64,000 bases of DNA, from the NCBI GenBank assembly GCA_036522815.1, contig DATDFC010000140.1:4243-68242 (forward strand). The letters run 5' to 3'. The position numbers and the translations under genes are program-made. This stretch comes from Gemmatimonadales bacterium (GTDB lineage: Bacteria > Gemmatimonadota > Gemmatimonadetes > Gemmatimonadales > GWC2-71-9). Below the pieces are notes generated by a model. That model was not told where the DNA came from. It saw only the letters and a list, made by a program, of their open reading frames with translations, and searched no databases. Position 1 is the stretch's first letter; every line of letters starts with the position of its first letter. Below are positions 423 through 32,549 of the stretch, in pieces.

Positions 423-549
423 CGAGACAGACCTCGCCGCAGCCGTGGCGAAGCGCATAAAGCCTTCCGCGCCCGCTTCGAATTCTGTAACTTCCAGCCG
501 CAGCAATTCTTAGGTCCGTAGCTCAATTGGTAGAGCACCGGTCTCCAAA
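423..549 (+). repeat. Left copy of direct repeat: integrase 3' coding tail + 5' half of tRNA-Trp
   Basis: Aligns with 32361-32514. The 38 nt of tRNA are identical. The upstream part has scattered mismatches and a ~27-nt deletion relative to the right copy. It encodes ...DLAAAVAKRIKPSAPASNSVTSSRSNS, versus ...DLAAAVARRFGNGKKTADIKPSALAPDSVTSSRSDS at the right copy. Confidence 0.9.
512..549 (+). pseudogene. Truncated tRNA-Trp (5' half, ends inside the anticodon loop after CTCCAAA)
   Basis: AGGTCCGTAGCTCAATTGGTAGAGCACCGGTCTCCAAA is identical to nt 1-38 of the intact tRNA at 32477. Identity stops at 549/550, and no T-arm or 3' acceptor follows. Confidence 0.9.
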
Positions 550-550
550 G

Positions 551-579
551 ACGGCGGGTCCCTGCGGGCCCGCCGTTTT
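551..579 (+). terminator. Rho-independent terminator-like hairpin
   Basis: ACGGCGGGTCC / GGGCCCGCCGT forms an 11-bp stem (one G-T pair) with a CTGC loop, followed by TTTTA. Confidence 0.6.
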
Positions 580-713
580 AATGCTCACCGACGGTCATGT
601 ACGACCACTAAGTCCCTCCAAATCCACCACGGACCGGCAAACTGTTCGCTGCGCTCAGTCGCTCGCGGTCGCGGTGCCCCGCAGTGTTTCTCCACCGCAA
701 CCGTCCACGGCGA

Positions 714-926
714 CTATGAGTCGGTGCATGGATTCATCTTGCGCCGCACCGGCGCGTAGTGCACGAGGAAGAGAGGTTCGAGTGCGCTCGACCCGAGGCG
801 CCACCAGGCCCCCAAGCCACGGAGCCGTTGCAGGTACTCCTTCTCCGTCACCGTGACCGTGAGAGTGTCATCAGGCGACGCGGCGGCGCAGCGGGGGTGG
901 CGAGATCGAAGCAGCTCGATAGTCAT
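714..926 (-). CDS. Hypothetical 70-aa protein, translationally coupled to the upstream JAB-like gene
   Basis: Its ATG at 926-924 overlaps the stop of the 923..1621 ORF (ATGA). I recognise no family. Confidence 0.3.
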   Translation of the reverse strand: MTIELLRSRHPRCAAASPDDTLTVTVTEKEYLQRLRGLGAWWRLGSSALEPLFLVHYAPVRRKMNPCTDS

Positions 927-1621
927 TGCTGGGCGCGTTCGGAGGCCGCTGGTGTTCGATGCTCCGTGAGCTGCAGCTGCTGCGCCGCCATGTCGCGGCT
1001 GACCCACACGACGCGGTCACCACACATGATCGCGTCCACCGGATAGGGTTGCCGCGCGAACGACGCTGCATCCGAGGTCGCAACTTGCGTCCCGGGGAAG
1101 TAGTAGAAGCAGCGCTCGCCGTCCGGGTGGCTGTGGATCACTCCCACGGTGCCGGCCCACCCTGCGTCCTCGCACGTCTGCTTGGGGAGGACGCGCGTCG
1201 GAGTTGACTGGGCTGGATCCACGTCCGCTGGAGCGATGCGTTCCACGATCACCGCGTCGCCTCTAATTGTGCCGATCATGCAGCCCATGAACTCGGTGAC
1301 GTAAGAGCGGTACTGTAGGAAGAGGTAACGCCGAGCTTGGGCCGACAGCAGGAGCACGCGCACCGGCGTCACGCCCATTGAGGGTCCCGGCGCGGGCCGT
1401 AGTGCGAGGACGGCTGTGATGCCTGCCACGCCGACGGCAGCGCGGATGATGACGGAGCGTCTCAGACCCTTTACCAAACTCCAGAGTCGAACTACGGCAT
1501 GTAGCACCGCCGAGAGACCGGTGTACGCTTGCGACGGTGCGTTTACGACAGTGCAGAGTGCCATTGACAGGACAAAGGATTGCGAGTCGCGCGAAGCGAG
1601 CCAATAGCGCGTTCGTACCAT
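923..1621 (-). CDS. Membrane-anchored protein with a JAB/MPN-like C-terminal domain (tentative)
   Basis: One hydrophobic helix (VIIRAAVGVAGITAVLAL) is followed by EFMGCMIGTIRGDAVIVERI and VGVIHSHPDG...ATSDAASF, resembling the E...HxH...S..D JAMM motif with non-canonical spacing. The ATG lies inside conserved element copy A, so the true start is uncertain. Confidence 0.4.
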   Translation of the reverse strand: MVRTRYWLASRDSQSFVLSMALCTVVNAPSQAYTGLSAVLHAVVRLWSLVKGLRRSVIIRAAVGVAGITAVLALRPAPGPSMGVTPVRVLLLSAQARRYLFLQYRSYVTEFMGCMIGTIRGDAVIVERIAPADVDPAQSTPTRVLPKQTCEDAGWAGTVGVIHSHPDGERCFYYFPGTQVATSDAASFARQPYPVDAIMCGDRVVWVSRDMAAQQLQLTEHRTPAASERAQQ

Positions 1622-1641
1622 CCCCGTCTACAGCCATCACG
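1561..1641 (-). repeat. Conserved ~80-nt intergenic element, copy A
   Basis: Minus-sense core ATGGTACGAACGCGCTATTGGC with alignable flanks shared with copies at 14420-14498, 20470-20550 and 26206-26290. It lies between the PAS-LuxR gene and the JAB-like gene. Confidence 0.85.
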
Positions 1642-1697: not shown

Positions 1698-2471
1698 CTA
1701 TTCGATGAGCCCACGCTGCTGCGCGTGAGTCACCGCCTCAAGGCGGGTGTGGGTGCGGAGCTTGCGGTTGATGTGGTGCAAGTGGTTGCGGAGCGTCTGC
1801 GCGGAAATGCTTAGTTTGCGGGCGATGGTCGTGGAGTTGCGGCCTTCGGCGAAAAGCTTCAAGATGCGGCGCTCCTGCTCGGAGAGCGGCTCGACGGGGG
1901 CGTGATGGGCCTCGTCGCCGGCGAGATCAACGAGTTGTCGGGCGAGGTCGACCATGCGGTAGAATCGCTCCTCGTTACGCCGGCGCTGGTCGACGTCGCG
2001 CTCCAACCGCACGAAGAGTCGCCGTCCTGTGCGCTGGTTGTCGAAGACGATGGTTGAGACGTTCACCCAAATCCGGCCCCTAGACTGGGTGCGTACCTCC
2101 AAGTCGAAATTCGGGATTACGCCGGACGTTCCGTCCCAGCGACGGGTCGCCGCTTCCGCGCCCCCTGCGAGCGCGCTGGTGCCCAACGTGTCGCGCGCCT
2201 CGAGCACTTCGTCGATGTTGCGGTGGAGCACCTCGCTCGCCGAGTAGCCGAACAGCCGCTCCGCGGCTCCGTTCCAGGAACAGATCTCGCCACTCTCGGT
2301 GACCGTGTACGCGGCGTCCGCCGTCTGCTCAAGCAGCGCAAACAACTCCGTTTCGAGCATTCCTCGCCTCGCGACCTCCTCGGCCGGAAATGCTAGCGCT
2401 TCAGCGCCACGTCGGCCAGACCGGTGTCCCGCGCAGGACACGCGTCTCTCCACACGGTACGAACGCTTCAT
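1698..2471 (-). CDS. PAS-domain LuxR-family transcriptional regulator
   Basis: C-terminal LSEQERRILKLFAEGRNSTTIARKLSISAQTLRNHLHHINRKL is a LuxR/GerE helix-turn-helix. The N-terminal half is PAS-like (ICSWNGAAERLFGYSASEVLHRNIDEV). The start was set at MKRSYRV (2471) because that N-terminus is retained in the duplicated relic at 20690. Confidence 0.8.
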   Translation of the reverse strand: MKRSYRVERRVSCAGHRSGRRGAEALAFPAEEVARRGMLETELFALLEQTADAAYTVTESGEICSWNGAAERLFGYSASEVLHRNIDEVLEARDTLGTSALAGGAEAATRRWDGTSGVIPNFDLEVRTQSRGRIWVNVSTIVFDNQRTGRRLFVRLERDVDQRRRNEERFYRMVDLARQLVDLAGDEAHHAPVEPLSEQERRILKLFAEGRNSTTIARKLSISAQTLRNHLHHINRKLRTHTRLEAVTHAQQRGLIE

Positions 2472-2559
2472 TGTCGGCTCAGGGGCCCCGCCATAACCAT
2501 ACTCCGTCGCACAACGCACTCAGAGAAGCTCGGCATTCCCTTGTAAAGGAGCCTCAAGT

Positions 2560-3039
2560 ATGAAACAGCTCGCACTTACTGCCCTCGCCGGGGTCCTCGG
2601 CGTCGGGATGCTTGTCGCATCCCCTGACTCCGCAACGGCCCAGGAGATGGCGCCCGCCAGCGCCTACAGGATTCACGCTGACACCTCAGCGCGCCAGCAA
2701 AAAGCGCCGCCGGGCGGTGCCTACAAGAAGGTCAGCACGCTCGTCGCGCTCCCGGACTTCGTCCCCGGACTCGGCACCCTGTACGTCGATCCCGCCACGC
2801 TGCCCGCGGGGCCGTTTCTCGCCTACGACCACCAAGGCAACCTGGTGAGCTCCATCTACATGATCCCGCTCAAGGACATGAACGCTCAGAAGGCGTTCAG
2901 CGATCTGAAGGTCGGTCGTGAGCGCGCCGATCACGTAGACATCGTTTTCAACGCGGGCCACCCGGGCGTGGCGGAGCCGCACTACCACGTGATCGTGTGG
3001 TACATCTCGCCGCAGCGCGCGGCCCAGCTCGCCAAGTGA
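2560..3039 (+). CDS. Secreted protein of unknown function (paralog 1)
   Basis: Signal peptide MKQLALTALAGVLGVGMLVASPDSATAQ. About 95 percent identical in protein and DNA to 20775..21200, apart from an extra 18-aa insert. AGGAG lies upstream of the ATG. Confidence 0.75.
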   Translation: MKQLALTALAGVLGVGMLVASPDSATAQEMAPASAYRIHADTSARQQKAPPGGAYKKVSTLVALPDFVPGLGTLYVDPATLPAGPFLAYDHQGNLVSSIYMIPLKDMNAQKAFSDLKVGRERADHVDIVFNAGHPGVAEPHYHVIVWYISPQRAAQLAK

Positions 3040-3632
3040 CGACACCGTCACGCCGCGAGTTCCTGAAAGCCGGCGGGCTGGCGCTCGTCGGCTTTGGGCT
3101 CGTGTCAGACCGGCGCGCGCCCCTAGCTGCGCTCCTCGGAGCGCGGTCCCGTTCGACGGCCGCTCTCGAGGTGATCGAGATGCGGAGCGACGCGCTCGGC
3201 TCCCGGGTATGGTTCGACCCGATTGGGCTCTACGTGGAACCGGGTGCGACGGTGCGCTGGATCGTGCGGGAGAACGTGCACACGACGACCGCCTACCACC
3301 CGCAGAACGATCATCATCCGCTGCGAATTCCCGAGAGCGCCGTGGCCTGGGACTCGGGGTTCCTCGTGCACCCGGGCGATCATTTCGAGGTCACGCTCAC
3401 CGTACCTGGGGTCTATGACTATTACTGCATGCCCCACGAAGCGGTCGGGATGGTAGGCCGGATCGTTGTGGGGCAGCCGATCGGGCCGGGCGCCGAGCCG
3501 TTCGACTACTGGGTGGGCAGGGCGGGAACGGACAGCTGGCGTCACGTGCCCGAGGCGGCCCGTCAGACCTTGCCGAGCGTCGCGCAGGTCCTCCACGAGC
3601 GCCGAGTGCATCCGCCCGGGCCGCGGAGATGA
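3036..3632 (+). CDS. Tat-signal blue-copper (plastocyanin/pseudoazurin-like cupredoxin) protein
   Basis: SRREFLKAGG is a twin-arginine motif. The type-1 copper ligands are H...YYCMPHEAVGM (C-x2-H-x4-M). The GTG start overlaps the upstream stop (GTGA). Confidence 0.8.
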   Translation: MTTPSRREFLKAGGLALVGFGLVSDRRAPLAALLGARSRSTAALEVIEMRSDALGSRVWFDPIGLYVEPGATVRWIVRENVHTTTAYHPQNDHHPLRIPESAVAWDSGFLVHPGDHFEVTLTVPGVYDYYCMPHEAVGMVGRIVVGQPIGPGAEPFDYWVGRAGTDSWRHVPEAARQTLPSVAQVLHERRVHPPGPRR

Positions 3633-3633
3633 C

Positions 3634-4095
3634 ATGGGAGCGGCCACGGTCGCCCAGTCGGGCAAGCACGACTCTCTGGGAGAGGGCGTCAGGCTCGGAC
3701 TCGTCGTCGCGACCAGCATCTGGGTCTGGCTCGCCGTGGTCGACGCGGTCGTGGGCGAACCGTTCCGCACGTTCACGGTGTTGGGCGGCGTCGCCTTGTT
3801 CACGACGATGCATTACGTGCTCAACGTGGCGTACGGCGCCGGCATTGTGGCCGCCATCCACGGCGCGGCACGAGAACCGAGTCTGGTCATCGCCGTAGCC
3901 TTCGGGTTCCCGATCGTCGAATTCGTGTTCGCGCTCGTCACGGTCCTGCTCTCGCATCTCGGACTCGGGCAGCTCGCCTGGGTCCGAATCTTTGGCGGGA
4001 GTCTGATCGGTACGGCAATCGCGATCGTCATCCTCGCTCGACGGCATCCGCTGGCGGCAGAGGTGCGGCAAGCTGAAGAGGAAGCCAATGACTGA
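3634..4095 (+). CDS. Integral membrane protein (about 4 TM helices), unknown function
   Basis: The ATG lies 1 nt after the upstream stop and is preceded by GGAG. The product is strongly hydrophobic (LGLVVATSIWVWLAVVDAVV..., IAVAFGFPIVEFVFALVTVLL). Confidence 0.6.
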   Translation: MGAATVAQSGKHDSLGEGVRLGLVVATSIWVWLAVVDAVVGEPFRTFTVLGGVALFTTMHYVLNVAYGAGIVAAIHGAAREPSLVIAVAFGFPIVEFVFALVTVLLSHLGLGQLAWVRIFGGSLIGTAIAIVILARRHPLAAEVRQAEEEAND

Positions 4096-4713
4096 ATGTC
4101 TTTTTGGGAAGGATGTGGAACAATGCTTAGACTCAATATCGCGCCGTCGGCCGGAAGGTGGCGCCCGTCAACAACCGTGGGACGGACACTCACGGCGATA
4201 GTGGGGCTGGTTACCCTTTCGCTCGCCGTTCCCGTGAGTGCTCAGCAGCAGGGGGTGGTGGATCCAACCTGGCTGCGTTTCGATACAGCCGCCAAAACGG
4301 TCCGCTTCCAGTTGATCGCTGGGCTCACCGGGCTGAACGGCGCCCTGAACTTCAACGGGTTCCGTGACGGGGCGCTCACGCTCGAAGTACCGGTAGGGTG
4401 GAAGACGGAGATCGACTTCCGCAACCACGACGGGATGTTGCCCCATAGCGCCGAGGTCATCGCTCCGCGCACGCCGCTGCCGACGCAGTCCGTCGATCCC
4501 GCCATTCCGCGGGCCTTCACGTTGAAGCTCGGGGAAGGGCTTCCTTCGGAGGCGAAGGACATCCTGGCCTTCACCGCGCAGCCTGCAGGGGAGTACTTGA
4601 TCTTCTGCGGCGTGCCCGGACACGGCGCCTCGGGGATGTGGATCCGGCTCCGAGTCAGCGCGACGGCCCAGACGCCGTCGTTGCTGCTCACGCCAGCGGT
4701 GGGCTCGAGCTGA
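4096..4713 (+). CDS. Sulfocyanin-like cupredoxin
   Basis: Signal/anchor, then LNFNGFRDGALTLEVPVGW and the copper site FCGVPGHGASGMW (C-x2-GH-x4-M). The start could instead be the ATG at 4123. Confidence 0.7.
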   Translation: MSFWEGCGTMLRLNIAPSAGRWRPSTTVGRTLTAIVGLVTLSLAVPVSAQQQGVVDPTWLRFDTAAKTVRFQLIAGLTGLNGALNFNGFRDGALTLEVPVGWKTEIDFRNHDGMLPHSAEVIAPRTPLPTQSVDPAIPRAFTLKLGEGLPSEAKDILAFTAQPAGEYLIFCGVPGHGASGMWIRLRVSATAQTPSLLLTPAVGSS

Positions 4714-4763
4714 GACTCAGCGATCGGCCGCTGGGGGAGACGAACGAATGCGAGAGGAGAAGA

Positions 4764-5448: not shown

Positions 5449-6216
5449 TCATCGAGCAGTGCCTCGTCGAAGTGCGGCCGCCGCGGGCGCGTCGACGAAC
5501 CAGCGCACGCGCCCGGCGGTGGGTGCGATCAGCTGGGCGGGCAGTCGGTGCGGTTGCCTGGGGCCCTCCAACACCTGCCGCAGGATGGCGGCCTTGGCGA
5601 CGCCCGTGACGAGAAAGGCGACCTCGGCCGCCGCATTGATGATGACTGGGCTGAGCGTGACCCGCCACGCCGACACCGCTTCCACGTATTCAGCCGTCAC
5701 CCAGCGCTGACCGTCGTGAAGTGCCGCCGCGCCCGGGAAGAGCGACGCCGTGTGCCCGTCCTCGCCCAGACCCAAGAGCACGAGGTCGATTCGCGCCCCG
5801 GGCGTGTCACGCGGGGAGCCCGTTGGCGTCCGGAGTACGCCTCGAATTACTCGCTCGTAGCTGGTGGCCGCTTCGGCAGGATCGTCTTCGCCGGAGATCC
5901 GGTGCACGTTCGCCGCGGGGATAGGTACATGGTCGAGCAGCGCCTCGCGTGCCATCCGATAGTTGCTCGCCGGGTGGTCCGGCGGCACACAGCGCTCGTC
6001 ACCCCACAAGACCTGGACTCGCGACCAATTCACGTTCGAAGCAGCAGGCTCTACCGCGAGTCGTGCGTACACGCTCCGCGGGGTTGATCCACCCGACAGC
6101 GCCACCACGAACTCTCCACGCGCGCGAATCGCGTCGTCGGCGGTCGCGACGAATCGTCGGGCCACGGCCTCGGCGACGAGAGAGGCGATCGGAAACACCT
6201 CGAGCTCGAAACCCAT
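5449..6216 (-). CDS. pgl: 6-phosphogluconolactonase
   Basis: VVALSGGSTPRSVYARLA, WGDERCVPPDHPASNY and LVLLGLGEDGHTASLFPG are hallmark SolR/DevB-family motifs. Confidence 0.85.
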   Translation of the reverse strand: MGFELEVFPIASLVAEAVARRFVATADDAIRARGEFVVALSGGSTPRSVYARLAVEPAASNVNWSRVQVLWGDERCVPPDHPASNYRMAREALLDHVPIPAANVHRISGEDDPAEAATSYERVIRGVLRTPTGSPRDTPGARIDLVLLGLGEDGHTASLFPGAAALHDGQRWVTAEYVEAVSAWRVTLSPVIINAAAEVAFLVTGVAKAAILRQVLEGPRQPHRLPAQLIAPTAGRVRWFVDAPAAAALRRGTAR

Positions 6217-6245
6217 GCGCCCCGATCCTCAGTGCGCCCCGATCC

Positions 6246-6980
6246 TCAGTCTTCCGCCCGTCGGAGCGCGTCCACCCGTCCGTCAGGGTGACCGACGAGG
6301 ACCTGGTCCGCCATTCCGAGAAAGAACCCAGTGTCCACGATACCGGCGATAGCATGGAGTGCCCGCTCGAGCTCACGCGCGGCCTGTCGGTCCCGCATCG
6401 GCTCCCGGAGTGTGCAGTCAAGGGTGAGGTTTCCGTTCTCCGACACGAGCGGCCTTGACCCTGTGCTGTTCATTCGGAGGGCAGGTGTCAGTCCGAGCGC
6501 CTTGAGCTTCTTCGTCGCGAGCCACTGCGCGAACGGGACCACCTCGACCGGCACCGGCCCGCGCTGGCCCAACCCACGGACCAGCTTTTCCTCGCCGACG
6601 AGAATTACCAGGCGCCTGGAGGCCGCGGCCACGATGCGTTCGCGCACCAGGGCACCGCCGCACCCCTTCACCAGGTCGAGGTTCGGCGCCACCTCATCTG
6701 CGCCGTCGATCGTGATGTCCAGTTGAACGTCTTCGCCCAACTCGATGAGCGGGATGCCGGCCTTCCTCGCCGTGTACGCTGAGGCATGTGAGGTCGGGAC
6801 GCCAGTGACCCGCAATCCGTCCTCCCGGCGCAGCCCCAGGGTCGTGATGAACAGGGAGGCGGCGCGGCCGGAGCCGAGGCCCACCCGCGACCCGTCGGCG
6901 ATAAGCTCGAGCGCCTTCGTGGCCACCGCGTGAACGCCCGGATCATCGAGACCGCCCGCGACGCTGGCTCGGTCGCTCAT
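6246..6980 (-). CDS. rpiA: Ribose-5-phosphate isomerase A
   Basis: GLGSGRAASLFI, DITIDGADEV, KGCGGALVRERIVA and GIVDTGFF. The start was set at the ATG at 6980, just after the zwf stop. Confidence 0.85.
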   Translation of the reverse strand: MSDRASVAGGLDDPGVHAVATKALELIADGSRVGLGSGRAASLFITTLGLRREDGLRVTGVPTSHASAYTARKAGIPLIELGEDVQLDITIDGADEVAPNLDLVKGCGGALVRERIVAAASRRLVILVGEEKLVRGLGQRGPVPVEVVPFAQWLATKKLKALGLTPALRMNSTGSRPLVSENGNLTLDCTLREPMRDRQAARELERALHAIAGIVDTGFFLGMADQVLVGHPDGRVDALRRAED

Positions 6981-6987
6981 GCGCGGC

Positions 6988-8355
6988 TCACGTTGCCGGG
7001 GCACGCCAGCCACCGATGTCCGCCGCGAGCTTCATCGCAGCGGCCGGACCCCAGCTGCCCGGTTCGTACTGGAGCGCCGGCACGACATTGCCGAGAATCC
7101 CTTGCACGACAGCCCACGCCGCCTCGACGCCGTCCTCACGGGCAAAGAGCATCGCATCTCCGTCCATTGCGTCGCCGAGCAGCCGCTCGTATGGCGTCAT
7201 CTCGTCGCCGGCGGGACGATGCGTGACTTGGAGTTCGGTCGGCTCAGACACCAGTTTCTCCCCCGGCTGCTTCACCCGCGCGCCGATCGCGATCTCTACC
7301 TCGGGACCCAGCCGGAACCGCACGTAATTCGTTTCGCCGTGGGCGAGCCTCATCACCGGAGGTCGCTTGAACGAGACAATCACCTCGGTCGCCGTCGCCG
7401 CGAGCGCCTTGCCGGCGCGGATGAGGAACGGCACGCTCTCCCAGCGCCACGAATCGATATGAAGCCGCACCGCCGCGAACGTCTCGACTGTGGAGTCCCG
7501 GGCAACATTCTCCTCCGCGCGGTACCCGTGGAACTGCCCGCGTACGACACAATCGGGCGTCAGCGGCCGGATCTTGCGGAAGACCCGCACCTGCTCGTCG
7601 CGGATCCCTTCCTTATAGTCCAGGTCGGGGGGTTCCATGGCGAGGAATCCCACCACCTGCAGCATGTGGTTCTGCACGACATCTCGAATGGCGCCGGCCT
7701 CTTCGTAGAAACGCCCGCGTCCCTGGAGACCGAACCGTTCCGCCATTGTGATTTGGACGCTCTCGACGTAATGGCTGTTCCACACGGGCTCCAGGAAGGT
7801 GTTCGCGAAGCGGAAGAGCAGGAGGTTCTGCACCGACTCTTTGCCGAGATAATGGTCGATGCGGAAGATGTGCTTCTCATCGAACACCTGATGCAGCGTC
7901 GCGTTGAGTGCCCGCGCACTCGCGAGGTCGCGCCCGAATGGCTTTTCCACCACGATGCGCGCGTTGCGGGCACACCCCGAGACGCCGAGCCCCTGGGCCA
8001 CGATCTCGAACATGTCGGGCGGAATGGCGAGATAATACAGCGGGCGCTTCGCATCGCCGAGCGCCGCTCGCAGCGCGACAAACGTGTCCGGGCGGCTGTA
8101 ATCGCCCTCAACGTATTGTAGACTCGCCGCGAACTTGGCGAACGCCGCGTCATCCACGGCTCCATCCTGCTCTACGCTGCGTCGCGCGTGGGCGCGAAAT
8201 CGCTCCAGCGTCCACCCGGAGCGCGCCACGCCGATCACCGGCATGAGCAGCTGGTTGCGACGTGTCATCGCGTAGAGCGCAGGGAATATTTTCTTGAACG
8301 CGAGGTCGCCCGTCGCCCCGAAGAAGACCAGCGCGTCCGCTCGGTCGGGATTCAT
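6988..8355 (-). CDS. zwf: Glucose-6-phosphate 1-dehydrogenase
   Basis: [20 protein letters not shown] and the RIDHYLGKE active-site motif. The ATG at 8355 overlaps the gnd stop (ATGA). Confidence 0.9.
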
Positions 8356-9371: not shown

Positions 9372-9414
9372 GCAATCCTCCCCTGGCCGCCCGCCGCCGA
9401 TGCGGGCCGATCCC

Positions 9415-20550: not shown

Positions 20551-20615
20551 GGGTGCGGGTGCAGAGCTTGCGGAGTGGCGGCCTGCGGCCAAGAGCATCA
20601 GGATGCAGCGCTCCT

Positions 20616-23930: not shown

Positions 23931-23946
23931 TTGAAAGGAGCACCCT

Positions 23947-24294: not shown

Positions 24295-24331
24295 GCCTGC
24301 GGGGATCGCACTCTCCAAGGGCCGCCTCGCC

Positions 24332-24649: not shown

Positions 24650-24770
24650 GGCAGGGGCCGCGGCTGCGACCGGCCCGCGATGGCAGGAAGTTGGCAGTGA
24701 CTATCGTTCACCGGGATTTTGAGGGCCTGCGTGAAGTTGAGTTCGAGAGGACAATCCGAGGCGACCCAGC

Positions 24771-24983
24771 ATGAAGAAAACATTCAAGGTCGGCGATCGC
24801 GTAACCTGGAACTCCGAGGCCGGACACGTCAGCGGGACGATCATCAAGGTGCACACTACAGATGTTGATTACAAAGGGTACATCCACCACGCGAGTAAGG
24901 ATGAGCCACAGTATGAAATTCAGAGTGACAAGACCGACCACATTGCCATGCATAAGGGTGGAGCGTTGAAAAGGGCAAAATGA
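24771..24983 (+). CDS. DUF2945 / Hva1-TUDOR-like small protein
   Basis: 70 aa. KVGDRVTWNSEAGHVSGTIIKV...PQYEIQSDKTDHIAMHK matches my recollection of the family. Confidence 0.55.
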   Translation: MKKTFKVGDRVTWNSEAGHVSGTIIKVHTTDVDYKGYIHHASKDEPQYEIQSDKTDHIAMHKGGALKRAK

Positions 24984-25636
24984 TCGTGAGCTCTCCGACC
25001 GCCCCATCGCGGGGCCATGCTAATGCAGCCAGCCACGCGGGAGGGAACGTCTATCCCAGCCTTGACGAAGTGCTGGCGGCGGTGCGTGGCTGCCGGGCGT
25101 GCGAGGCGCATCTCCCGCTCGGCCCGCGGCCGGTGCTGCGTGCGGGCGCAACGGCCCGCATCCTGGTCGTGGGGCAGGCGCCCGGGGTGCGCGTGCACCA
25201 AACCGGCGTTCCGTGGGACGACCCGAGCGGGGAACGCCTGCGTGTGTGGATGGGCGTGGACCGGCACGTCTTTTATGACGAATCGCGTATCGCGATCATT
25301 CCCATGGGATACTGCTATCCAGGGCGAGGCAACGGCGGTGATAAGCCGCCGCGCCGTGAATGTGCGACGCTATGGCTCGACCAACTGCTGGCTAGATTGC
25401 CCCGAATTGAACTGACTCTGCTCATCGGGCATTATGCCCAGCGTCACTTTCTCGGCAGCCGCCGCAAGCCGTCACTGACCGCGACAGTCAGAGCGTGGCC
25501 CGCGTATGCTCCGGACTACCTGCCGCTGCCCCACCCATCGCCGCGTAATCAGCCATGGTTCAAGCATCATCCCTGGTTCGAGCGGCAACTCGTCCCGGTG
25601 TTGCGCACACGAATCCACGCGCTGGTTGAGCGCTGA
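24980..25636 (+). CDS. Uracil-DNA glycosylase superfamily protein
   Basis: CRACEAHLPLGPRPVLRAGATARILVVGQAPG and C-terminal LPHPSPRN motifs. The start overlaps the upstream stop. Confidence 0.75.
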   Translation: MIVSSPTAPSRGHANAASHAGGNVYPSLDEVLAAVRGCRACEAHLPLGPRPVLRAGATARILVVGQAPGVRVHQTGVPWDDPSGERLRVWMGVDRHVFYDESRIAIIPMGYCYPGRGNGGDKPPRRECATLWLDQLLARLPRIELTLLIGHYAQRHFLGSRRKPSLTATVRAWPAYAPDYLPLPHPSPRNQPWFKHHPWFERQLVPVLRTRIHALVER

Positions 25637-25652
25637 ACCAGAGTTGACGGGA

Positions 25653-26210
25653 ATGGCGGCGACCGTGGATTCCGAGGTCGTTGTACTGACTGTGGGCCAT
25701 TCGACACGGCCACTGGTCGAGTTCATTGCGTTGTTAAAGGCCCACTCGGTGGCTCGGCTCATTGACGTGCGCACCGTGCCACGCTCTCGGCACAACCCGC
25801 AGTTCAACCGCGATACTCTGGCGGCCGCGCTCGCGGCCACTGGCATCGGCTATGAACACGTTGCCGGCCTGGGAGGATTCCGGCGCACACACCCGGGGTC
25901 CACGAATACGGGATGGCGCAACGTGTCCTTCCGCGGTTACGCCGACTACATGCAAACCGCTGAATTCGCGGAGCGCCTCGCAGACCTCATCGCCGAGGCC
26001 AGACGCGAGCGCCTCGTGCTGATGTGCGCCGAGGCCGTACCGTGGCGCTGCCATCGCTCACTGATCGCCGACGCGTTGCTGGTGCACGGTTTGCGCGTCG
26101 AGGAAATCGTCAGCGGGACGCGTCGCCAGGTACACGCGCTGACCCCCTTCGCCAAGGTCAGCGACCTGCTAATCACGTATCCGCCGGAAGCGTCGCCGTC
26201 TCGAGCGTGA
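25653..26210 (+). CDS. DUF488 family protein (long form)
   Basis: VLTVGHSTRPLVEFIALLKAHSVARLIDVRTVPRSRHNPQFN and LMCAEAVPWRCHRSLIAD. Confidence 0.75.
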   Translation: MAATVDSEVVVLTVGHSTRPLVEFIALLKAHSVARLIDVRTVPRSRHNPQFNRDTLAAALAATGIGYEHVAGLGGFRRTHPGSTNTGWRNVSFRGYADYMQTAEFAERLADLIAEARRERLVLMCAEAVPWRCHRSLIADALLVHGLRVEEIVSGTRRQVHALTPFAKVSDLLITYPPEASPSRA

Positions 26211-26290
26211 TGGATGTTGACGTTGATGGTACGAACGAGCCATTGGCCCGCGTCGCGCACAGCGCCACCATTCGCCTAATCAAGTGACAC
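26206..26290 (+). repeat. Conserved ~80-nt intergenic element, copy D
   Basis: Plus-sense CGTGATGGATGTTGACGTTGATGGTACGAACGAGCCATTGGCCCGCGTCGCGCA...ATTCGCC. Its 5' GTGA contains the stop of the DUF488 gene. It lies ~80 nt upstream of the PQQ dehydrogenase start. Confidence 0.8.
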
Positions 26291-26367
26291 GCCAGAACTG
26301 TCGCCAGTAAAAGGCCGCGACCGGAAGCGTGCGAGAGAATAACACTCGACCTTTAACGGAGGTGGGT

Positions 26368-28071
26368 ATGACGCATTGGACTCGATGGTCCGCGATTGCG
26401 GTGGTCGCGTCGCTGATCGCGGTACCGCTGTGTGCGCAGTCGCACACCGCCGTGACAAATGACATGCTGCTCAACGCCGCGAGGAGCAGCGACTGGCTGA
26501 TGTATGGCGGCAACTACTGGAACAACCGGTTCTCTCCATTAAAGCAGATCAACACGACCAACGTGAAGCGCCTTGTTCCGCGGGCGATCTACACCCATGG
26601 TTCGAGCACTCTCGGCAGTTTTGAGACCACGCCAGTTGTCGTCAACGGCATCATGTACATCACGTCGCCCGTGAAGCCCAACAACATCGTGCGGGCGTTC
26701 GATCTGCGGTCGCAGAAGATGCTGTGGGAACACGTGCACAAGACCGGGCCGGTCAGCACCGCATGCTGCGGCTACAACAACCGCGGCGTGGCGGTAGCGA
26801 ACGGCATGGTCTACGTCGCGACGTTGGACGGCCAAATGATCGCGCTCGATCAACAGACCGGTGAGGAGAAGTGGGCAGTGCAGGTCGGTGACCCCGCGGC
26901 TGGTTACACCTTCACTATGGCGCCGCTCGCGATTGGCGACAAAGTCATCGCCGGGACGTCTGGGGGAGAGTACGGAATTCGTGGCTGGGTGAAGGCCTTC
27001 AACGGCGCGACGGGCGCGCTCGCGTGGACGTGGTATTCAATCCCCGCGCCGGAGGATGGCGGCTGGTGGGGCACGTGGGCTAAGACCACGCCGGAGGGCA
27101 ACGACCTCCATCGGGACATCGCGAAGGAGAAAACCGACTCGGCCAAGTACGCTGACGCCTGGCAGAATGGCGGCGGCGGGGTGTGGATGACGCCGGCCTA
27201 TGACGACGCCACGAAGACGCTATACGTCGCGGTCGGCAACCCATCGCCCGACCTAGACGGCTCGGTCCGCCCGGGTGACAACCGCTGGACCGATGGCATC
27301 GTCGCCATCGACGTGAACACCGGCAAGTTCAAGTGGGGCTATCAGACCGTGCCGCACGACGTGTGGGACTTGGACGCGGTGAGCCCCCCCGTGATCGTCA
27401 TGGTCGACGGCAAGAAAGCCGTGGTCCACGCCGGCAAGACGGGCTGGGTCTACGTCCTCGACGCGGCGACCGGGAAGCTGATCAGGAAGTCGGACGCGTT
27501 CGTCCCGCAGCAGAACATGTTCGCGCTCCCGACTCCCGAGGGGACGTTCATGCTTCCGGGCGCTAACGGTGGCTCGGAGTGGTCCCCAATCGCCGTGAAC
27601 CCGGGCCTCGCCTACGCGTACACGGTCGGCCTGCATCAGCCGATGCACTACAAGACCCACTATGCGCCGTGGGAGAAGGGTCGGGTGTGGCTGGGATCCG
27701 CCTTCTTGCGAATCCCGGACGACAAGGGCGACTTCTCTGGCGAATACGGTAACGTCAACGCGATTGACCTGAAGACCGGGAAGATCGCCTGGTCGGTGAA
27801 GACCGAGCAGCCAATGATGGGCGGCGCGACTGCCACGGCAGGTGGGCTGGTGTTCACCGGCGAGGGCAACGGCTGGTTCAAGGCCTACGACGCCAAGACC
27901 GGCGCGGTCCTGTGGAAGTTCAACTGTGGCGCGGGCGCGAACGCCGCACCCTCTGTGTTCGAGGTTGACGGCGAGCAGTTCATCGCCGTGGCCGCGGGCG
28001 GGAACTTCCAGCTGAGCTTCCCACTGGGCAACACGGTCTTCGTCTTCGGGCTGCCGAAGACGGGGAGGTAA
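26368..28071 (+). CDS. PQQ-dependent alcohol/methanol-family dehydrogenase (type I quinoprotein, no haem domain)
   Basis: Signal peptide; WLMYGGNYWNNRFSPL; the vicinal disulfide ACCGYNNRG; repeated W-motif blades; WDLDAV around the catalytic Asp. GGAGGTG lies before the ATG at 26368. Confidence 0.85.
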   Translation: MTHWTRWSAIAVVASLIAVPLCAQSHTAVTNDMLLNAARSSDWLMYGGNYWNNRFSPLKQINTTNVKRLVPRAIYTHGSSTLGSFETTPVVVNGIMYITSPVKPNNIVRAFDLRSQKMLWEHVHKTGPVSTACCGYNNRGVAVANGMVYVATLDGQMIALDQQTGEEKWAVQVGDPAAGYTFTMAPLAIGDKVIAGTSGGEYGIRGWVKAFNGATGALAWTWYSIPAPEDGGWWGTWAKTTPEGNDLHRDIAKEKTDSAKYADAWQNGGGGVWMTPAYDDATKTLYVAVGNPSPDLDGSVRPGDNRWTDGIVAIDVNTGKFKWGYQTVPHDVWDLDAVSPPVIVMVDGKKAVVHAGKTGWVYVLDAATGKLIRKSDAFVPQQNMFALPTPEGTFMLPGANGGSEWSPIAVNPGLAYAYTVGLHQPMHYKTHYAPWEKGRVWLGSAFLRIPDDKGDFSGEYGNVNAIDLKTGKIAWSVKTEQPMMGGATATAGGLVFTGEGNGWFKAYDAKTGAVLWKFNCGAGANAAPSVFEVDGEQFIAVAAGGNFQLSFPLGNTVFVFGLPKTGR

Positions 28072-28226
28072 CATTCACCCGTCCGGCCGCGCAGTCATGA
28101 TCTCTGAAGTTTTGTCACTGCGGTTGCGGCGGTGAAACCAGATGCGACCTTGCGTGCTCCCGCGCGAGGTCGCATAGGTTCCTTTGCGCGACAGGAGTCT
28201 ATACCCGCACCTGAAGGAACGCCGTC

Positions 28227-28775
28227 ATGAACGCTTGGCTCGTATTCGCCGCGTTCGCTGTCGTCGCTGGCAGTTGGACGGTCGCCTGGATCTGGATCGT
28301 CACTCATGCCCGTTCGGCTGCGCCCACCAAGGCCGGGGAAGAGTTCGACCTTGCAGGCGCGCGGCGGATCTTGCTCCCGCTGCTCTGCACCGTCGCCATC
28401 GTGCTGTTTGTGACCTCGCTCCCCCGACTTCCCTACGTGCACGCTCGCGTGCGCCGGCTCGGCGCACCGGTGGCGCACGTCGCGGTCACGGGCCTCCAGT
28501 GGACATGGCAGCTCGACCGCGACACGCTCCCCGCCGGCGTTCCCGTCGAGTTCGCCGTGACGTCGCGCGATGTGAACCACGGGTTCGCGATCTACGACTC
28601 CGTGGGGCGGCTGCTCACCCAGGTGCAGGCGATGCCGAACTATACCAACCGACTCGTCTACACGTTTCCCGCGCCGGGGAGCTACGTGATCCGCTGCCTC
28701 GAGTACTGCGGGATCGCGCACCACGTGATGCAGACGACGCTCGTGGTCACGGGCGCCGCGGGAGCCCACCCATGA
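28227..28775 (+). CDS. Haem-copper oxidase subunit II (CuA cupredoxin domain, no cytochrome c domain)
   Basis: One N-terminal TM helix, VNHGF, and CLEYCGIAHHVM (CuA ligands C-x3-C-x3-H-x2-M). Confidence 0.8.
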   Translation: MNAWLVFAAFAVVAGSWTVAWIWIVTHARSAAPTKAGEEFDLAGARRILLPLLCTVAIVLFVTSLPRLPYVHARVRRLGAPVAHVAVTGLQWTWQLDRDTLPAGVPVEFAVTSRDVNHGFAIYDSVGRLLTQVQAMPNYTNRLVYTFPAPGSYVIRCLEYCGIAHHVMQTTLVVTGAAGAHP

Positions 28776-30253
28776 GCGCCGCTCCCGTGGCGGAGGGCGT
28801 GCGCGACGGGCGAGTGCTCCGAGCCGCCCTCGCCTACCTTGTCACTGGCTTCGCGACGTTCCTGCTCATGGGCCTACTCGGGCTCCACATGCGGCTCGAT
28901 CAGGGCGGCCTCATGACGGTGTCGCCAACCTGGTTCTACCGAATCATGACGCTGCACGGGAGTGGCATGGTGGCGGGCACGATGCTCGCCACCATGGGCG
29001 GGCTTGCTGCCGCCGTAGAGCGGACCGTGCGCCTCAGCGCTCGAGCGCTGTGGACCGCGTTCCTCGTCTACATGCTCGGCATGGGATTCATTGTCTTGGC
29101 TACGACCCTGGGCGGGTTCGCCGCGGGGTGGACGGTATTGTATCCCCTGCCCGCGCTCGGGCGCGTATGGACGCTCTGGGCGGCAGTCGCGGCCTTCGTG
29201 GGCTACCTCTTTGTCACCCTCGGATTCACCCTCTACTGTTTCCACATCGCCTGGCGGATCGCGGCAGAGCGACACGGCCTCGGTAACGCCTTGGGGTGGT
29301 CGCTCTGGCGGAAGACGGAGCCGAACGATCCCCGCCGGCCCGGCTCCGCCGTCGAGATCATTGCCGCGGTGGTGACGCTCCAAGGTGTCTTCACGGGCCT
29401 CGTCGGCGCGGCGTACGTCGTGCCGGTACTCCTGAAGGATGCGGGACTCGTCGCCGCGCTCGACCCCTTGCTCGAGAAGAACCTCGCCTACTTGTTCGGC
29501 CACCAGCTCGCGAATCTGAACATCTACTTCGCTGCCGCTTTCGTGTACGCGCTCGTGGCGGAGCACACCGGTCGCCGGTGGCCAGCCAGCCGCCACGTGG
29601 CCGTCGCATGGAACCTCGTGCTGCTGCTCGTGCTGCTCCCCTGGCCGCACCATCTCTACCAGGACTTCGCACAACCGACGTTCATGCCCATTGCCGCCGA
29701 AGCCATATCGTTCCTCGTCGGGATCCCCTCCTTCCTCGTTACGATCTTCGGCGCTCTTGGGCGGATCAACCGATCCGGCATGCAGTGGTCGGTTCCGATG
29801 ATCCTCGTGGCGCTGGGACTATGGGGGTGGGTGACGGGAGGGCTCGGCGCCGTTCTGGACTCTGTGATCCAGGTAAACCAGGTCACGCACAACACGCTGT
29901 GGGTGCCGGCGCACTTCCACACGTACTACCTGCTCGGCGCTGCGGCCTTCACGTGGGCGTACCTGTACGACTTGGTGACTCGGCTTGCCGGCGTGCCGGA
30001 GGGTCGCGCGAGTCGGGTGGCAGCGTGGCTCTACGGCGTGGGTGGGGCTGGGTTCGTCCTGATGTTCTTCCTCTCTGGAGCGGCTGGCGTTCCCCGCCGC
30101 TATGCGGCCCACCTCCCCCAGTGGCAGCCGTTCGCGCGGATGGCGGTGCCCTTTGTCGTGCTGCTCGCTCTCGCCCTGGTGTGGCTCGCCGTGGACGTCG
30201 TCACGCGTCTGCGCCCGGCGTGGGTGCGCGCGGGCGCTGGTACACGGAACTAG
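28772..30253 (+). CDS. Haem-copper oxidase superfamily subunit I, atypical (no Tyr at the cross-link position)
   Basis: Twelve-TM-like hydrophobic profile. TLHG (haem His), FGHQLAN (CuB His, but N where A/B-family oxidases have the cross-linked Y), PWPHHLY (CuB His pair) and VPAHFHTYY (haem His pair). The ATG overlaps the subunit II stop (ATGA). Confidence 0.85.
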   Translation: MSAAPVAEGVRDGRVLRAALAYLVTGFATFLLMGLLGLHMRLDQGGLMTVSPTWFYRIMTLHGSGMVAGTMLATMGGLAAAVERTVRLSARALWTAFLVYMLGMGFIVLATTLGGFAAGWTVLYPLPALGRVWTLWAAVAAFVGYLFVTLGFTLYCFHIAWRIAAERHGLGNALGWSLWRKTEPNDPRRPGSAVEIIAAVVTLQGVFTGLVGAAYVVPVLLKDAGLVAALDPLLEKNLAYLFGHQLANLNIYFAAAFVYALVAEHTGRRWPASRHVAVAWNLVLLLVLLPWPHHLYQDFAQPTFMPIAAEAISFLVGIPSFLVTIFGALGRINRSGMQWSVPMILVALGLWGWVTGGLGAVLDSVIQVNQVTHNTLWVPAHFHTYYLLGAAAFTWAYLYDLVTRLAGVPEGRASRVAAWLYGVGGAGFVLMFFLSGAAGVPRRYAAHLPQWQPFARMAVPFVVLLALALVWLAVDVVTRLRPAWVRAGAGTRN

Positions 30254-30263
30254 CGGAAGTCCC

Positions 30264-30947
30264 GTGGGCGCTCGCATCGCGGCCATCCCTGACGCGCAAG
30301 TCTCTCCACTGGCCCGTGGGACGCTGGTGGGCGGCATCGCGGTCCTGGCGATCGCGATCTCGCCTCCGTTCGACCGGATCGCCGACCGATTCCTCACTGC
30401 CCACATGGCCCAGCATCTCCTGCTGACTCTTGTCGCAGCGCCGCTGCTTGTGGCAGGGGTCGGTGCGTGGCAGCCGCTCTGGGTCACGCTCGAGAAGCTG
30501 GTTTTGGGGCGCGGAGGCGCAGCCCTCGGGCGTGTCCTCACGCACCCACTTGTCGCTTGGGTGATTTCGGCCGTCGTGCTCTGGGCCTGGCACGCCCCGC
30601 AGGCCTACGACGCGGCGCTCGCCGACGACCGCGTGCACGCCGCCGAGCACCTTTCGTTCGTAGTCGCTTACGTGCTTTACTGGTGGCCACTCCTCGGGAC
30701 CGGCGTGGCCGAGCGGTCGAACGCATTTCGGGCCTTCTACCTCCTTGCAGGAACCGCGACGGGCGGATTGCTCGGCGCGTTGCTCACCTTCGCGCCGGGC
30801 GCGTGGTACGCTCATTACAACGCCATACCCAGCCCAACAGGCCTGTCGCCCCTCGCCGACCAGCATCTCGCGGGAGCGGTCATGTGGCTCATCGGTGCGG
30901 TACCGTTCGCGCTGATTGGGGTGGCCGTGCTGCGGGACGAGGGCTAG
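30264..30947 (+). CDS. ctaG: Cytochrome c oxidase assembly factor CtaG (Caa3_CtaG family) membrane protein
   Basis: FLTAHMAQHLLLTLVAAPLL, VLWAWHAPQAYDAAL and ADQHLAGAVMW motifs. The GTG start at 30264 is inferred. Confidence 0.65.
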   Translation: MGARIAAIPDAQVSPLARGTLVGGIAVLAIAISPPFDRIADRFLTAHMAQHLLLTLVAAPLLVAGVGAWQPLWVTLEKLVLGRGGAALGRVLTHPLVAWVISAVVLWAWHAPQAYDAALADDRVHAAEHLSFVVAYVLYWWPLLGTGVAERSNAFRAFYLLAGTATGGLLGALLTFAPGAWYAHYNAIPSPTGLSPLADQHLAGAVMWLIGAVPFALIGVAVLRDEG

Positions 30948-31957
30948 TGGCGAGGCGGCGGGTTTTCTCCGGTATCCAGCCGACAGGGAAGCTCCATCTG
31001 GGCAACTACATCGGCGCGATCAGCCTCTGGGTCGCGGCGCAAGCGGAGCACGAGGCGATCTTTTGCATCGCTGACCTCCACGCTTTGACGATTCCCGAGG
31101 CCGCGCGGGCTGCTCACCTCCGGGCCAAGGTGCGCGAGACGGCGGCCGTTCTCGTCGCCTGCGGGATCGATCCGGCTCGCGCGATTCTTTTCGTGCAGTC
31201 GCATGTCCCTGCGCACACACAACTGGCATGGCTCCTCAGCTGCGTGACGCCCGTCGGCTGGCTCGAGCGCATGATTCAGTTCAAGACTCGGTCCGCCGCG
31301 CTCGAGAGCGTGGGCACAGGACTACTCGCGTACCCGGTGCTGCAGGCGGCGGACATCCTGCTCTATCGGGCCGATCTCGTCCCGGTCGGTGAGGATCAGC
31401 AGCAACACATCGAGTTCACCCGCGACGTCGCAAGGCGATTCCACGCGCTGTTCGGACAGGTGTTCACGCTCCCGGAATCGATGCTCCAGCCGAGCGGCGC
31501 GCGGATAATGGGTTTGGACGACCCCAGCACGAAGATGAGCAAGAGCCGGGGCGAGACCCGGCCGTATCACGCCATCGGCTTGGTCGATCCCCCCGATGCG
31601 ATCCGTGACGTCGTCATGCACGCGGTCACCGACTCCGGGCGAGAGGTGCAGCCAGAGCGTGCGTCCCCGGGCGTAACCAATCTCCTGAGGATCTACGAGC
31701 TGCTGTCGGGCCGCCGCAGCGACGCCGTACAGGCGGAGTTCATGGGAAAGGGTTACGCAGTCTTGAAGCGTGCGGTTGCGGACTTGGTCGTCACGACGCT
31801 CGAGCCCATCCGGCGGCGGTATCTAGATATTGCAGCCGAACCGGGGCGGCTCGATGCGGTACTTGATGAGGGTGCCGAGCGCGCCCGCCCACTCGCTGAC
31901 GCGACGCTCGATCGGGTCAATCAGCTAATGGGCTTGGAAGAGGGAACCCAGGATTGA
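30947..31957 (+). CDS. trpS: Tryptophan--tRNA ligase
   Basis: RVFSGIQPTGKLHLGNYIGA (HIGH-type motif) and KMSKS. The GTG start overlaps the ctaG stop by 1 nt. Confidence 0.9.
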   Translation: MARRRVFSGIQPTGKLHLGNYIGAISLWVAAQAEHEAIFCIADLHALTIPEAARAAHLRAKVRETAAVLVACGIDPARAILFVQSHVPAHTQLAWLLSCVTPVGWLERMIQFKTRSAALESVGTGLLAYPVLQAADILLYRADLVPVGEDQQQHIEFTRDVARRFHALFGQVFTLPESMLQPSGARIMGLDDPSTKMSKSRGETRPYHAIGLVDPPDAIRDVVMHAVTDSGREVQPERASPGVTNLLRIYELLSGRRSDAVQAEFMGKGYAVLKRAVADLVVTTLEPIRRRYLDIAAEPGRLDAVLDEGAERARPLADATLDRVNQLMGLEEGTQD

Positions 31958-32205
31958 GTAAATCGGTTGGCCTCACTCTGACCCGTAAGAGCGTAGGAGG
32001 GCGGCTTACTTCTCCGCCACGAGCGGCCCGACGTTCACCGTCATTCGCGGCGACATCGAGCCACGCAGGAACGTCAGGTGGACGACTTGATCTGAGGGGG
32101 TTGTTCGACGGTTTGGTGGAAGATGTACCCAAGGAGGGCTCCGGCGCCGCTGCTCACTATCGTCAACAGGGCGGGAACCACCACCGGAGGTGCCAGGGCG
32201 ATCGG

Positions 32206-32478
32206 GCGACCAAACGCGCCGGGCTCGCGGGCATGTTGGTGCATGACCTCCGGCGCACGGCCGTGCGAGATTTTCGACGCGCCGGCGTGTCGGAGGGTGA
32301 GATCATGAAGCTCTGCGGGTGGCGGACGCGCTCGATGTTCGATCGCTACAACATCATCGACGAGGCGGACCTCGCCGCAGCCGTGGCGAGGCGGTTTGGC
32401 AACGGCAAAAAAACCGCAGACATAAAGCCTTCCGCGCTCGCCCCGGATTCTGTAACTTCCAGCCGCAGCGATTCTTAG
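32206..32478 (+). pseudogene. C-terminal fragment of a tyrosine recombinase (phage-type integrase)
   Basis: LVHDLRRTAVRDFRRAGVSEGEIMKLCGWRTRSMFDRYNI carries the box II His/Arg and the catalytic Tyr. Sequence upstream of ~32206 is not integrase-like, so the N-terminal two-thirds are missing. Confidence 0.7.
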
Positions 32479-32514
32479 GTCCGTAGCTCAATTGGTAGAG
32501 CACCGGTCTCCAAA
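32361..32514 (+). repeat. Right copy of direct repeat (integrase 3' tail + tRNA-Trp 5' half)
   Basis: Partner of 423-549; see that feature. Confidence 0.9.
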
Positions 32515-32549
32515 ACCGGGGGTTGCAGGTTCGATTCCTGCCGGGCCTG
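32477..32549 (+). tRNA. trnW: tRNA-Trp (anticodon CCA)
   Basis: Hand-folded cloverleaf. The acceptor stem AGGTCCG/CGGGCCT has one G-T pair. The D-arm is GCTC-AATTGGTA-GAGC and the anticodon arm is CCGGT-CTCCAAA-ACCGG. The T-arm is GCAGG-TTCGATT-CCTGC and the discriminator is G. CCA is not encoded. Confidence 0.9.

Follow-up and report, generated by a model that had tools for sequence, protein, structure and literature searches.

Scars of a probable reversed-polarity integration into tRNA-Trp bracket a 32-kb mosaic of accessory modules in a Gemmatimonadales genome

The window examined here, a stretch of 64,000 nucleotides (nt), corresponds to positions 4243-68242 of contig C140 of a metagenome-assembled genome (MAG) of a Gemmatimonadales bacterium, a 4.0-Mb assembly distributed over 247 contigs, with a GC content of 0.69 (0.690), and labeled G000 below. 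Those relatives in the order that carry a title are soil MAGs of the Gemmatimonadales or Gemmatimonadaceae. At the left end of the window are found, in succession, a fragment of an IorB-like gene, the tail of a tyrosine integrase gene, the 5' half of a tRNA-Trp gene and a hairpin, while some 32 kb further on lie the stump of a tyrosine integrase gene and an intact tRNA-Trp gene. These two sets of features are considered below as the likely end scars, that is, the left and right attachment sites (attL and attR), of an element that entered tRNA-Trp in a polarity reversed relative to that of most tRNA gene-linked islands.

The intact tRNA-Trp(CCA) (32477-32550, + strand), predicted by ARAGORN at 32476-32550, is the sole tRNA-Trp that the 4.0-Mb assembly contains. 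A terminator comes next (32570-32601, + strand), detected in a scan as a 9-bp stem and a T-run, and the sequence spanning 32551-32622 is conserved in G016 and G010, two members of the genus, for which 28 genomes (27 besides G000) were compared. A first-pass annotation of the window had described a direct repeat involving this gene. Alignment of 424-549 with 32361-32514 confirmed this, yielding 118 identities, 8 mismatches and a single gap of 27/28 nt, with the longest exact run common to both copies being 44 nt. Indeed, the left copy (512-549, + strand) corresponds to tRNA-Trp positions 1-38 (32477-32514) with no mismatch, as had been claimed, and the first base past the anticodon loop differs, such that CTCCAAA is followed by GACGG on the left and by ACCGG on the right. 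Likewise, the mismatches and the gap agree with the upstream integrase codons having been described as similar, with mismatches and an indel of about 27 nt. The left copy is taken as the core of attL, namely a displaced 5' half, and the intact gene as attR, in which the 5' half would have been supplied by the element and the 3' half by the host.

Immediately upstream of the intact tRNA-Trp lies the C-terminal stump of a tyrosine integrase (32170-32478, + strand), in which about 95-100 of some 350-400 residues are kept, namely those matching residues from about 247/291 to the end of intact homologues. The TAG stop codon of the stump overlaps tRNA-Trp by 2 nt. When five intact homologues served as queries in tblastn searches, only their last 72-82 residues matched the stump, at 54-81% identity, and no integrase similarity was found 5' of position 32170. 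The stump retains the HxxR motif (HDLRR), the W and the RY of the catalytic Tyr region, with the upstream catalytic Arg and Lys having been deleted. Its match to PF00589 is weak (20 bits, under the 27.1 cut-off); the intact homologues score 39-67 bits and also present SAM-like N domains. The right copy is therefore what it had been proposed to be, namely an intact tRNA gene behind an N-terminally truncated recombinase relic. When the G000 assembly was searched for a further integrase of this family, none was found. Because the stump is all that is left and the assembly contains no second integrase of the family, the locus is best described as the fossil of a tRNA gene (tDNA) island rather than as an intact member of that class, and truncation of the integrase predicts that the element is immobile.

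At the left end, the displaced 5' half is directly followed by a GC-rich hairpin ending in TTTT (550-579, + strand), recognized by folding and in agreement with the terminator hairpin noted earlier. The stem comprises 12-14 bp, and a 96-nt fold of the region has an energy of -40.2 kcal/mol (z = -3.4); a simple terminator scan misses this hairpin, which contains too few T. A hairpin is found at the same position in the attL of G009, G008, G130, G313, G016 and G020, as well as on contig C181 of G000. The sequence that comes next, namely 580-642 (+ strand), shares 82-87% identity with G000:C181:13045-13137, with positions 9116-9217 of the G016 locus (L015) and with positions 1078-1210 of the G020 locus (L131). 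The hairpin and this sequence are together regarded as what remains of the P' arm, that is, the arm of the attachment site that lies beyond the crossover point. The homology to the G016, G020 and C181 arms ends at 642, 93 nt into the arm, such that only the first of two arm-type repeats (CGGCAAAC, at 635-642) is present. That 550-642 might be a free-standing repeat or a small RNA was also considered and rejected, as a Trp 5' half accompanies this sequence in G016, in G020 and in one of the C181 copies, and as the layout matches the attL of intact elements.

On its other side, the displaced half is preceded by an integrase tail consisting of the last ~27 codons and a stop codon (424-513, + strand), which aligns with 32361-32478. 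The upstream similarity score is 43.5, as compared to a shuffled maximum of 14. No arm motif is left in 424-513, the P-arm repeat pair having been removed by the 27-nt deletion. Upstream of a displaced half, similarity to an older integrase tail is significant in the window and likewise in G009 and G001, and is absent in G008, G130, G313 and G016. These findings indicate that 424-513 is the tail of an older, separate integrase, the earlier occupant of the same tRNA gene, and that integration was serial, with the site having been used at least twice.

The older tail starts exactly where a fragment of an IorB-like molybdopterin-subunit gene (64-423, + strand) ends, at 423/424. This pseudogene piece is a 360-nt copy (361 nt in the alignment) sharing 88% nt identity with positions 3514-3873 of the contig and containing two frame-breaking gaps; its source is an internal part (residues ~550-668) of the intact 782-residue IorB-like gene found directly upstream (Pfam MoCoBD_1/2), to residues 574-668 of which it is 86% identical at the amino acid (aa) level. 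The fusion of an oxidoreductase relic to the left copy was thus correctly recognized in that the fragment abuts the integrase tail, yet what had been seen as a truncated gene is instead a partial copy of the intact gene next to it. The first-pass annotation had further reasoned that an oxidoreductase gene intact elsewhere, together with relatives having the same 32 kb in the same context without the left repeat, would reduce the latter to a simple local duplication. The intact gene that is indeed adjacent does not in itself lead to this conclusion, as the left copy includes an element-type P' arm common to other genomes. The IorB fragment may be a donor-derived fragment of an orthologue or a local duplication. 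When the left flank (alpha/beta hydrolase and IorB) was used in DNA searches of the 27 other genus genomes, no orthologue and only a paralogous 430-nt segment was obtained, as expected if the left flank belongs to an older island.

Two more copies of the P' arm were detected in G000 itself, at C181:7873-7951 and 13045-13198 (positions 874-952 and 6046-6199 of L023), lying 5.2 kb apart in direct orientation. One of these comes with a tRNA-Trp 5' half and a short tail-like stretch, while the other consists of the arm alone. The two flank genes encoding AraC, DUF4142 and hybrid histidine kinase proteins, and Pfam searches of the neighborhood revealed ordinary regulators and nothing mobile. These copies are probably older junction scars relocated by rearrangement.

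The integrase family to which the stump belongs was next considered. A search with the stump covered 300 genomes of the order, 47 of which contained matches, and the 11 best loci were fetched. In each case, a co-oriented tRNA gene was found directly downstream, with seven identities being represented (Lys, Gln, Phe, Cys, Ser, Leu and Arg). A wider scan, involving one genome per species and in which identity was measured against the integrase of G130, returned 80 loci. Among these, 22 loci with at least 41% identity present a co-oriented tRNA gene across a gap of -10 to +33 nt, while remoter members (from Acidobacteriota, Eisenbacteria and Bryobacterales) mostly have a tRNA gene on the opposite strand or none. 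Among those loci with enough contig, six elements with an intact integrase repeat the 5' part of the tRNA 5-10 kb upstream (Arg 1-42, Gln 1-37, Cys 1-37, Ser 2-45, Lys 1-38 and Met 1-46), and two opposite-strand relatives repeat the 3' part (Cys 31-76 and Leu 29-84). In every case, the inner end of the direct repeat falls in the anticodon stem-loop. The six intact elements hence lend support to the integrase-mediated crossover in the anticodon loop that had been postulated from the window alone. Moreover, the window presents the same features as does this reversed-polarity clade, with the 3' end of the integrase gene abutting the 5' end of a co-oriented tRNA gene and the 5' repeat ending at the anticodon loop. 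An integrase homologue directed at tRNA-Trp, the existence of which had been proposed as a check, was also identified; L060 encodes an integrase 81% identical to the stump at the aa level (over the relic), with the same overlap of stop codon and tRNA-Trp and an identical tRNA.

In a quick maximum-likelihood tree, 17 Gemmatimonadota integrases form a clade (SH-aLRT 100) in which 16 of the 17 are co-oriented with the tRNA gene. The sister clade is from Acidobacteriota, with the tRNA gene on the opposite strand (the canonical type), and at least seven changes of polarity are required across the whole integrase tree. L054 (G115:C32), L096 and L119 fall within the co-oriented Gemmatimonadota clade, yet have their tRNA genes (Pro, Trp and Pro, respectively) on the opposite strand; these are possible recent polarity reversals.

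In the intact elements, the displaced 5' part is directly followed by a GC hairpin and a T-run, and then by a pair of P' repeats. Repeat pairs are found at -71/-60 from the start of the tRNA, in the last integrase codons (the P arm), and at +87/+99 nt (the P' arm). Within a given element, the two arms share one motif, which differs from element to element (CGGCAAAC, GGGCAAGT, CGGCACAGT and GGGCACA), which is the pattern expected of arm-type integrase sites. The Trp-specific L060 contains an intact CGGCAAAC pair. In the attP of lambda-type systems, arm-type sites are bound by the N-terminal domain of the integrase. The elements considered here are similar in that paired direct repeats, 11-12 nt apart, lie at a fixed distance from the core on either arm and co-vary with the integrase. 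They differ in that the P-arm pair, if the repeats are indeed binding sites, resides within the integrase's own last codons (the N-G-K region). In the window, P-arm repeats are found in degenerate form within the stump, at ~32398-32421. Given the degenerate P pair, the deletion in the older tail and the loss of the P' arm after 642, the attachment site in the window is a fossil. The arm repeats would bind the integrase, the hairpin would terminate transcription and the integrase tail may supply the promoter of the tRNA gene.

Considered together, these observations lead us to read 512-32550, with a probability of roughly 80%, as the fossil left when a tyrosine integrase of the Gemmatimonadota clade inserted its element into tRNA-Trp in reversed polarity. 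In the proposed course of events, itself a reconstruction, attP would have comprised the 3' tail of the integrase gene with its two arm-type repeats, tRNA positions 1 to ~38 up to a crossover point in the anticodon loop and, beyond this point, the terminator-like hairpin and two arm-type repeats about 87 and 99 nt further along. When this site recombined with the tRNA gene on the chromosome, the integrase gene and the 5' half from the element would have come to lie before the 3' half of the host (attR, 32170-32550), while the old 5' half of the host, now with the hairpin and arm behind it, would have been moved to the opposite end of the element (attL, 512-642). Since an earlier element would already have re-headed the tRNA gene, the integrase tail found on the displaced piece (424-513) is that of the previous occupant. 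In the decay that presumably came later, about 75% of the integrase would have been lost where it meets a block exchanged horizontally (23426-31959), the P' arm would have been cut after 93 nt and the P-arm repeats would have degenerated, while the DNA between the scars may have become, or given way to, a mosaic of accessory modules that includes the only pgi and zwf genes of the genome and a second trpS. Islander (PMC4383910) defines an island by an intact tDNA together with a cognate end fragment in the same orientation, which in the case of a 5' fragment lies upstream of the tDNA, an integrase gene in between and a length of 2-200 kb. The window offers a fragment of positions 1-38 at 512-549, on the same strand and upstream of tRNA-Trp, and a distance of ~32 kb from scar to scar; of the integrase gene, the stump alone remains.

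Relatives provide a picture of the site prior to such events. In all seven genomes of a sister family (f2; L124-L130), an uninterrupted operon of the order His-Trp-Glu(CTC)(-Glu TTC), with spacers of 9-100 nt, is found. In G020, the closest relative identified (85-87% identity in the flanks), tRNA-His is followed after ~50 nt by a Trp 5' half, the hairpin and both arm repeats. G016 shows the same succession of tRNA-His, Trp 5' half, hairpin and arm and then, after 1.7 kb, an integrase tail and tRNA-Trp. The sister-family operon and the G020 and G016 layouts together point to an ancestral tRNA operon having been split by integration from the 5' side. The hairpin of the element is positioned where it would stop the His transcript. 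Finally, integrase-tail relics of 50-350 nt are found upstream of tRNA-Trp in many genomes of the genus (at least 10). In G000, the parts of the His-Trp-Glu operon are distributed over three contigs (C223, C140 and C185), with tRNA-His being on C223, which is joined to C112 via an overlap of 141 nt. When contig ends were tested for overlaps that would link C181 or C223 to C140, none was obtained for C140 or C181; the C112-C223 overlap was the only one.

Several findings weigh against reading the locus as such a fossil. The left scar in G000 is not adjacent to tRNA-His, unlike in G020 and G016, and two further arm copies are present on C181. This reveals that rearrangements occurred, and the 32 kb need not be the element's own load. 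Moreover, pgi, zwf, gnd and tal are single-copy in G000, with the interval behaving as functionally core DNA, and intact members of the family were found only in the range of 5-10 kb. As for the details of the model, the T-run of the hairpin includes only four T, and scans for sigma-70-type promoters in both repeat copies (the integrase tails) found none, such that the promoter role of the tail is something that we infer.

The DNA between the scars comprises at least two modules. Module A (643-23425) includes, as assigned by Pfam, genes for JAB-domain, PAS-LuxR, sulfocyanin-like, HAD, PrpD, CMD and AhpC-like proteins, a DsbA fragment and a duplicated secreted-protein gene, together with a pentose-phosphate/glycogen operon (pgl, rpiA, zwf, gnd, GH15, glk, glgA, tkt, pgi and tal; 5449-19301). 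From about 1.9 to 23.9 kb, the sequence is 90-96% identical to small contigs of G020, as compared to 85-87% in the flanks, and the operon is found at 90-94% identity in both G020 and G010. G004 contains only paralogues of module A, at no more than 80% identity. In G024 (contig C26), a collinear short version was detected, in which 1801-4723 is joined directly to 23449 onward, without the 18.7-kb central part. Among the 28 genus genomes, the pgi type of the window is found in three and its zwf type in two; nine other genus genomes carry a zwf that is 47-48% identical. Module B (23426-31959, + strand) encodes two DUF488 proteins, a Rieske protein, UDG, a pyrroloquinoline quinone (PQQ) dehydrogenase, haem-copper oxidase subunit I, CtaG and a second trpS product, and is 90-95% identical to and collinear with G004:C61:101212-110013, whereas other orthologous stretches of G000 and G004, flanks included, share 71-80% identity. 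In G004, this module is located ~210 nt from the 3' end of tRNA-Asn. The homology stops 2 nt past the trpS stop codon, leaving an unassigned joint (31960-32169) between module B and the integrase stump. Across relatives, the core flanks are ~75-87% identical. Second copies of tkt, glgA, the PQQ dehydrogenase gene (C133, 78% aa identity) and trpS (C38, 45% aa identity) are present elsewhere in G000. The comparison of composition suggested in the first-pass annotation also set the interval apart, with a GC content of 0.664 as opposed to 0.690 for the genome.

It follows that, rather than being one original element, the 32 kb is mosaic accessory DNA in which two or more horizontally exchanged modules are combined. 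Given that the integrase breaks off exactly where module B ends and that the P' arm stops at 642, the content was remodelled after integration. The large, immobilized island that had been envisaged is thus supported, with the refinement that its content is a mosaic. A search for the interval as a block in relatives revealed parts shared at 90-96% identity with G020 and G004, yet the modules reside in different relatives. That the interval is instead a single ~32-kb element, the product of one integration with all of its content being original cargo, is unlikely. The scars do bracket the interval in the correct orientation, the GC content is slightly under the genome mean along its whole length and several homologous integrases lack a 5' repeat within 10 kb upstream, such that larger elements may exist. 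Yet, the closest relative changes from G020 (~1.9-23.9 kb) to G004 (23.4-32.0 kb), with neither having been found to contain the module of the other (module B was not found in G020), a collinear version without the 18.7-kb center exists in G024, the P' arm breaks off at 642, the integrase is truncated precisely where module B ends, and module B is already met in an unrelated context beside tRNA-Asn in G004. Nor does cargo tie the interval to the family, since tblastx comparison of four intact elements with the interval and with each other revealed the integrase alone to be in common.

An artefact of assembly or binning, in which two populations were joined through the shared 120-nt repeat, is highly improbable. 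While the MAG is distributed over 247 contigs and the 141-nt overlap of C223 and C112 points to assembly with k=141, the longest stretch shared exactly (44 nt) is far under that value, both copies are interior to the contig with unique flanks on each side, and the same three-part architecture recurs in the independently assembled MAGs G016, G001, G009 and G020. Least credible is a local, recombinase-independent segmental duplication of the integrase tail and tRNA start within 32 kb of ordinary chromosome since, although IorB next door also left a partial copy at the junction and orf2560 is segmentally duplicated inside the interval (95% aa identity), the copy stops exactly at the anticodon-loop boundary, the hairpin and arm are homologous to those after displaced Trp 5' halves in G016, G020 and G000:C181, the layout is that of the attL of the six intact elements and the right copy has no such arm, such that its duplication could not have yielded the left one.

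Beyond reversed-polarity integration itself, a further set of proposals can be offered, although when taken jointly these are doubtful. The last integrase codons of this clade may at the same time provide the P-arm binding sites and the promoter region for the re-headed tRNA gene, in which case selection could keep the tail of a decayed integrase as the permanent upstream region of the tRNA gene; this would explain the relics of 50-350 nt found before tRNA-Trp in at least 10 genomes of the genus. The orphan 5' half and hairpin could be transcribed as a short tRNA-half-like RNA, and the family could have flipped its target polarity several times by virtue of the symmetry of the anticodon stem-loop.

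To our knowledge, no integrative elements have been described in Gemmatimonadota. Integrases with an anticodon-loop sublocation have reportedly been described, and the family considered here is similar in that, across its many tRNA identities, the inner end of every direct repeat lies at the anticodon stem-loop; it differs in that both polarities are seen in the family of the stump. The first-pass annotation considered duplication of the 5' half unusual, and such polarity is rare but documented. In those passages of PMC6563490 that cite Zhao and Williams (2002, J Bacteriol 184:859) and archaeal cases, recombination at the 5'-distal part of a tRNA gene is described as considerably rarer than at the 3' part. 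In Islander, 159 of 3919 islands have a 5' fragment as opposed to 3760 with a 3' fragment, 2083 sites are anticodon-centred ('anticodon centered attP site A') and 125 tandems are listed (PMC4383910). Tandem arrays of islands re-using one tDNA are also mentioned in PMC6563490. As in the islands of 'reversed target orientation', to the extent that the element from 2002 can be compared via the citing paper, the element in the window gives the 5' part of the tRNA together with its upstream region, the former 5' part has been moved to the far end, and the integrase lies beside the intact tRNA gene with the site being centred on the anticodon. Unlike these, the window contains a decayed, integrase-truncated, 32-kb mosaic, in Gemmatimonadota. 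As in the Islander tandems, a remnant of an earlier integrase, namely its tail, is found on the left copy, as would be expected from a second entry into a re-headed tRNA gene and as is also seen in G009 and G001. In the window, however, neither member has an intact integrase, the older being reduced to 27 codons fused to a fragment of an unrelated gene.

As such, integration of 5' polarity has already been described, and what is added here is its regularity at the level of a clade, the co-varying arm repeats and the switch of polarity within one family. The tRNA-Trp fossil island opens no new mechanism. Rather, it offers a well-delimited example, with a testable model of attP, of the minority polarity in tRNA gene integration. 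It also illustrates that a tRNA-linked island can contain a genome's only copies of central metabolism genes (pgi and zwf). For annotation, it accounts for an orphan half-tRNA and an integrase stump, and advises caution, given that the pentose-phosphate/glycogen operon and second trpS of the G000 MAG are horizontally exchanged accessory DNA.

Further observations concern individual genes and the surroundings of the interval. The second, divergent trpS (30467-31957) lies ~520 nt upstream of tRNA-Trp and is 45% identical to the C38 copy at the aa level. As it is found at 94% nt identity beside tRNA-Asn in G004, its pairing with tRNA-Trp looks coincidental. The JAB-domain gene (923-1621) belongs to a multi-copy family with three paralogues in G000 (45-67% aa identity), and the genomes of relatives each contain several copies (72-80% nt identity). 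An intergenic element of ~80 nt, found at 1563-1641 and 20397-20553, matches positions 14891-14973 of L011 and 4522-4693 of L134. As it matches upstream regions in G004 and G010 at 77-86% identity, this element travels with the modules of the island.

tRNA-Trp is also a target in the canonical polarity in the genus. In L015 (G016:C80, 10842-12052), L016 (G001:C137, 6505-8471) and L021 (G010:C251, 2165-4051), a 42-47-nt copy of the 3' part of tRNA-Trp (from position ~28) is found 1.1-1.9 kb downstream. These copies bracket small islets, with that in G016 consisting of an open reading frame of 268 aa. With 3'-part copies downstream and 5' halves upstream, both sides of tRNA-Trp are integration hot spots in the genus. 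In the window, a low-GC (0.593) islet that retains no 3' tRNA fragment lies 3' of tRNA-Trp (32623-35400) and encodes T5orf172, DUF5131 and other proteins, and the conserved flank of the genus restarts at ~36047, with 68-71% identity to G001 and G007.

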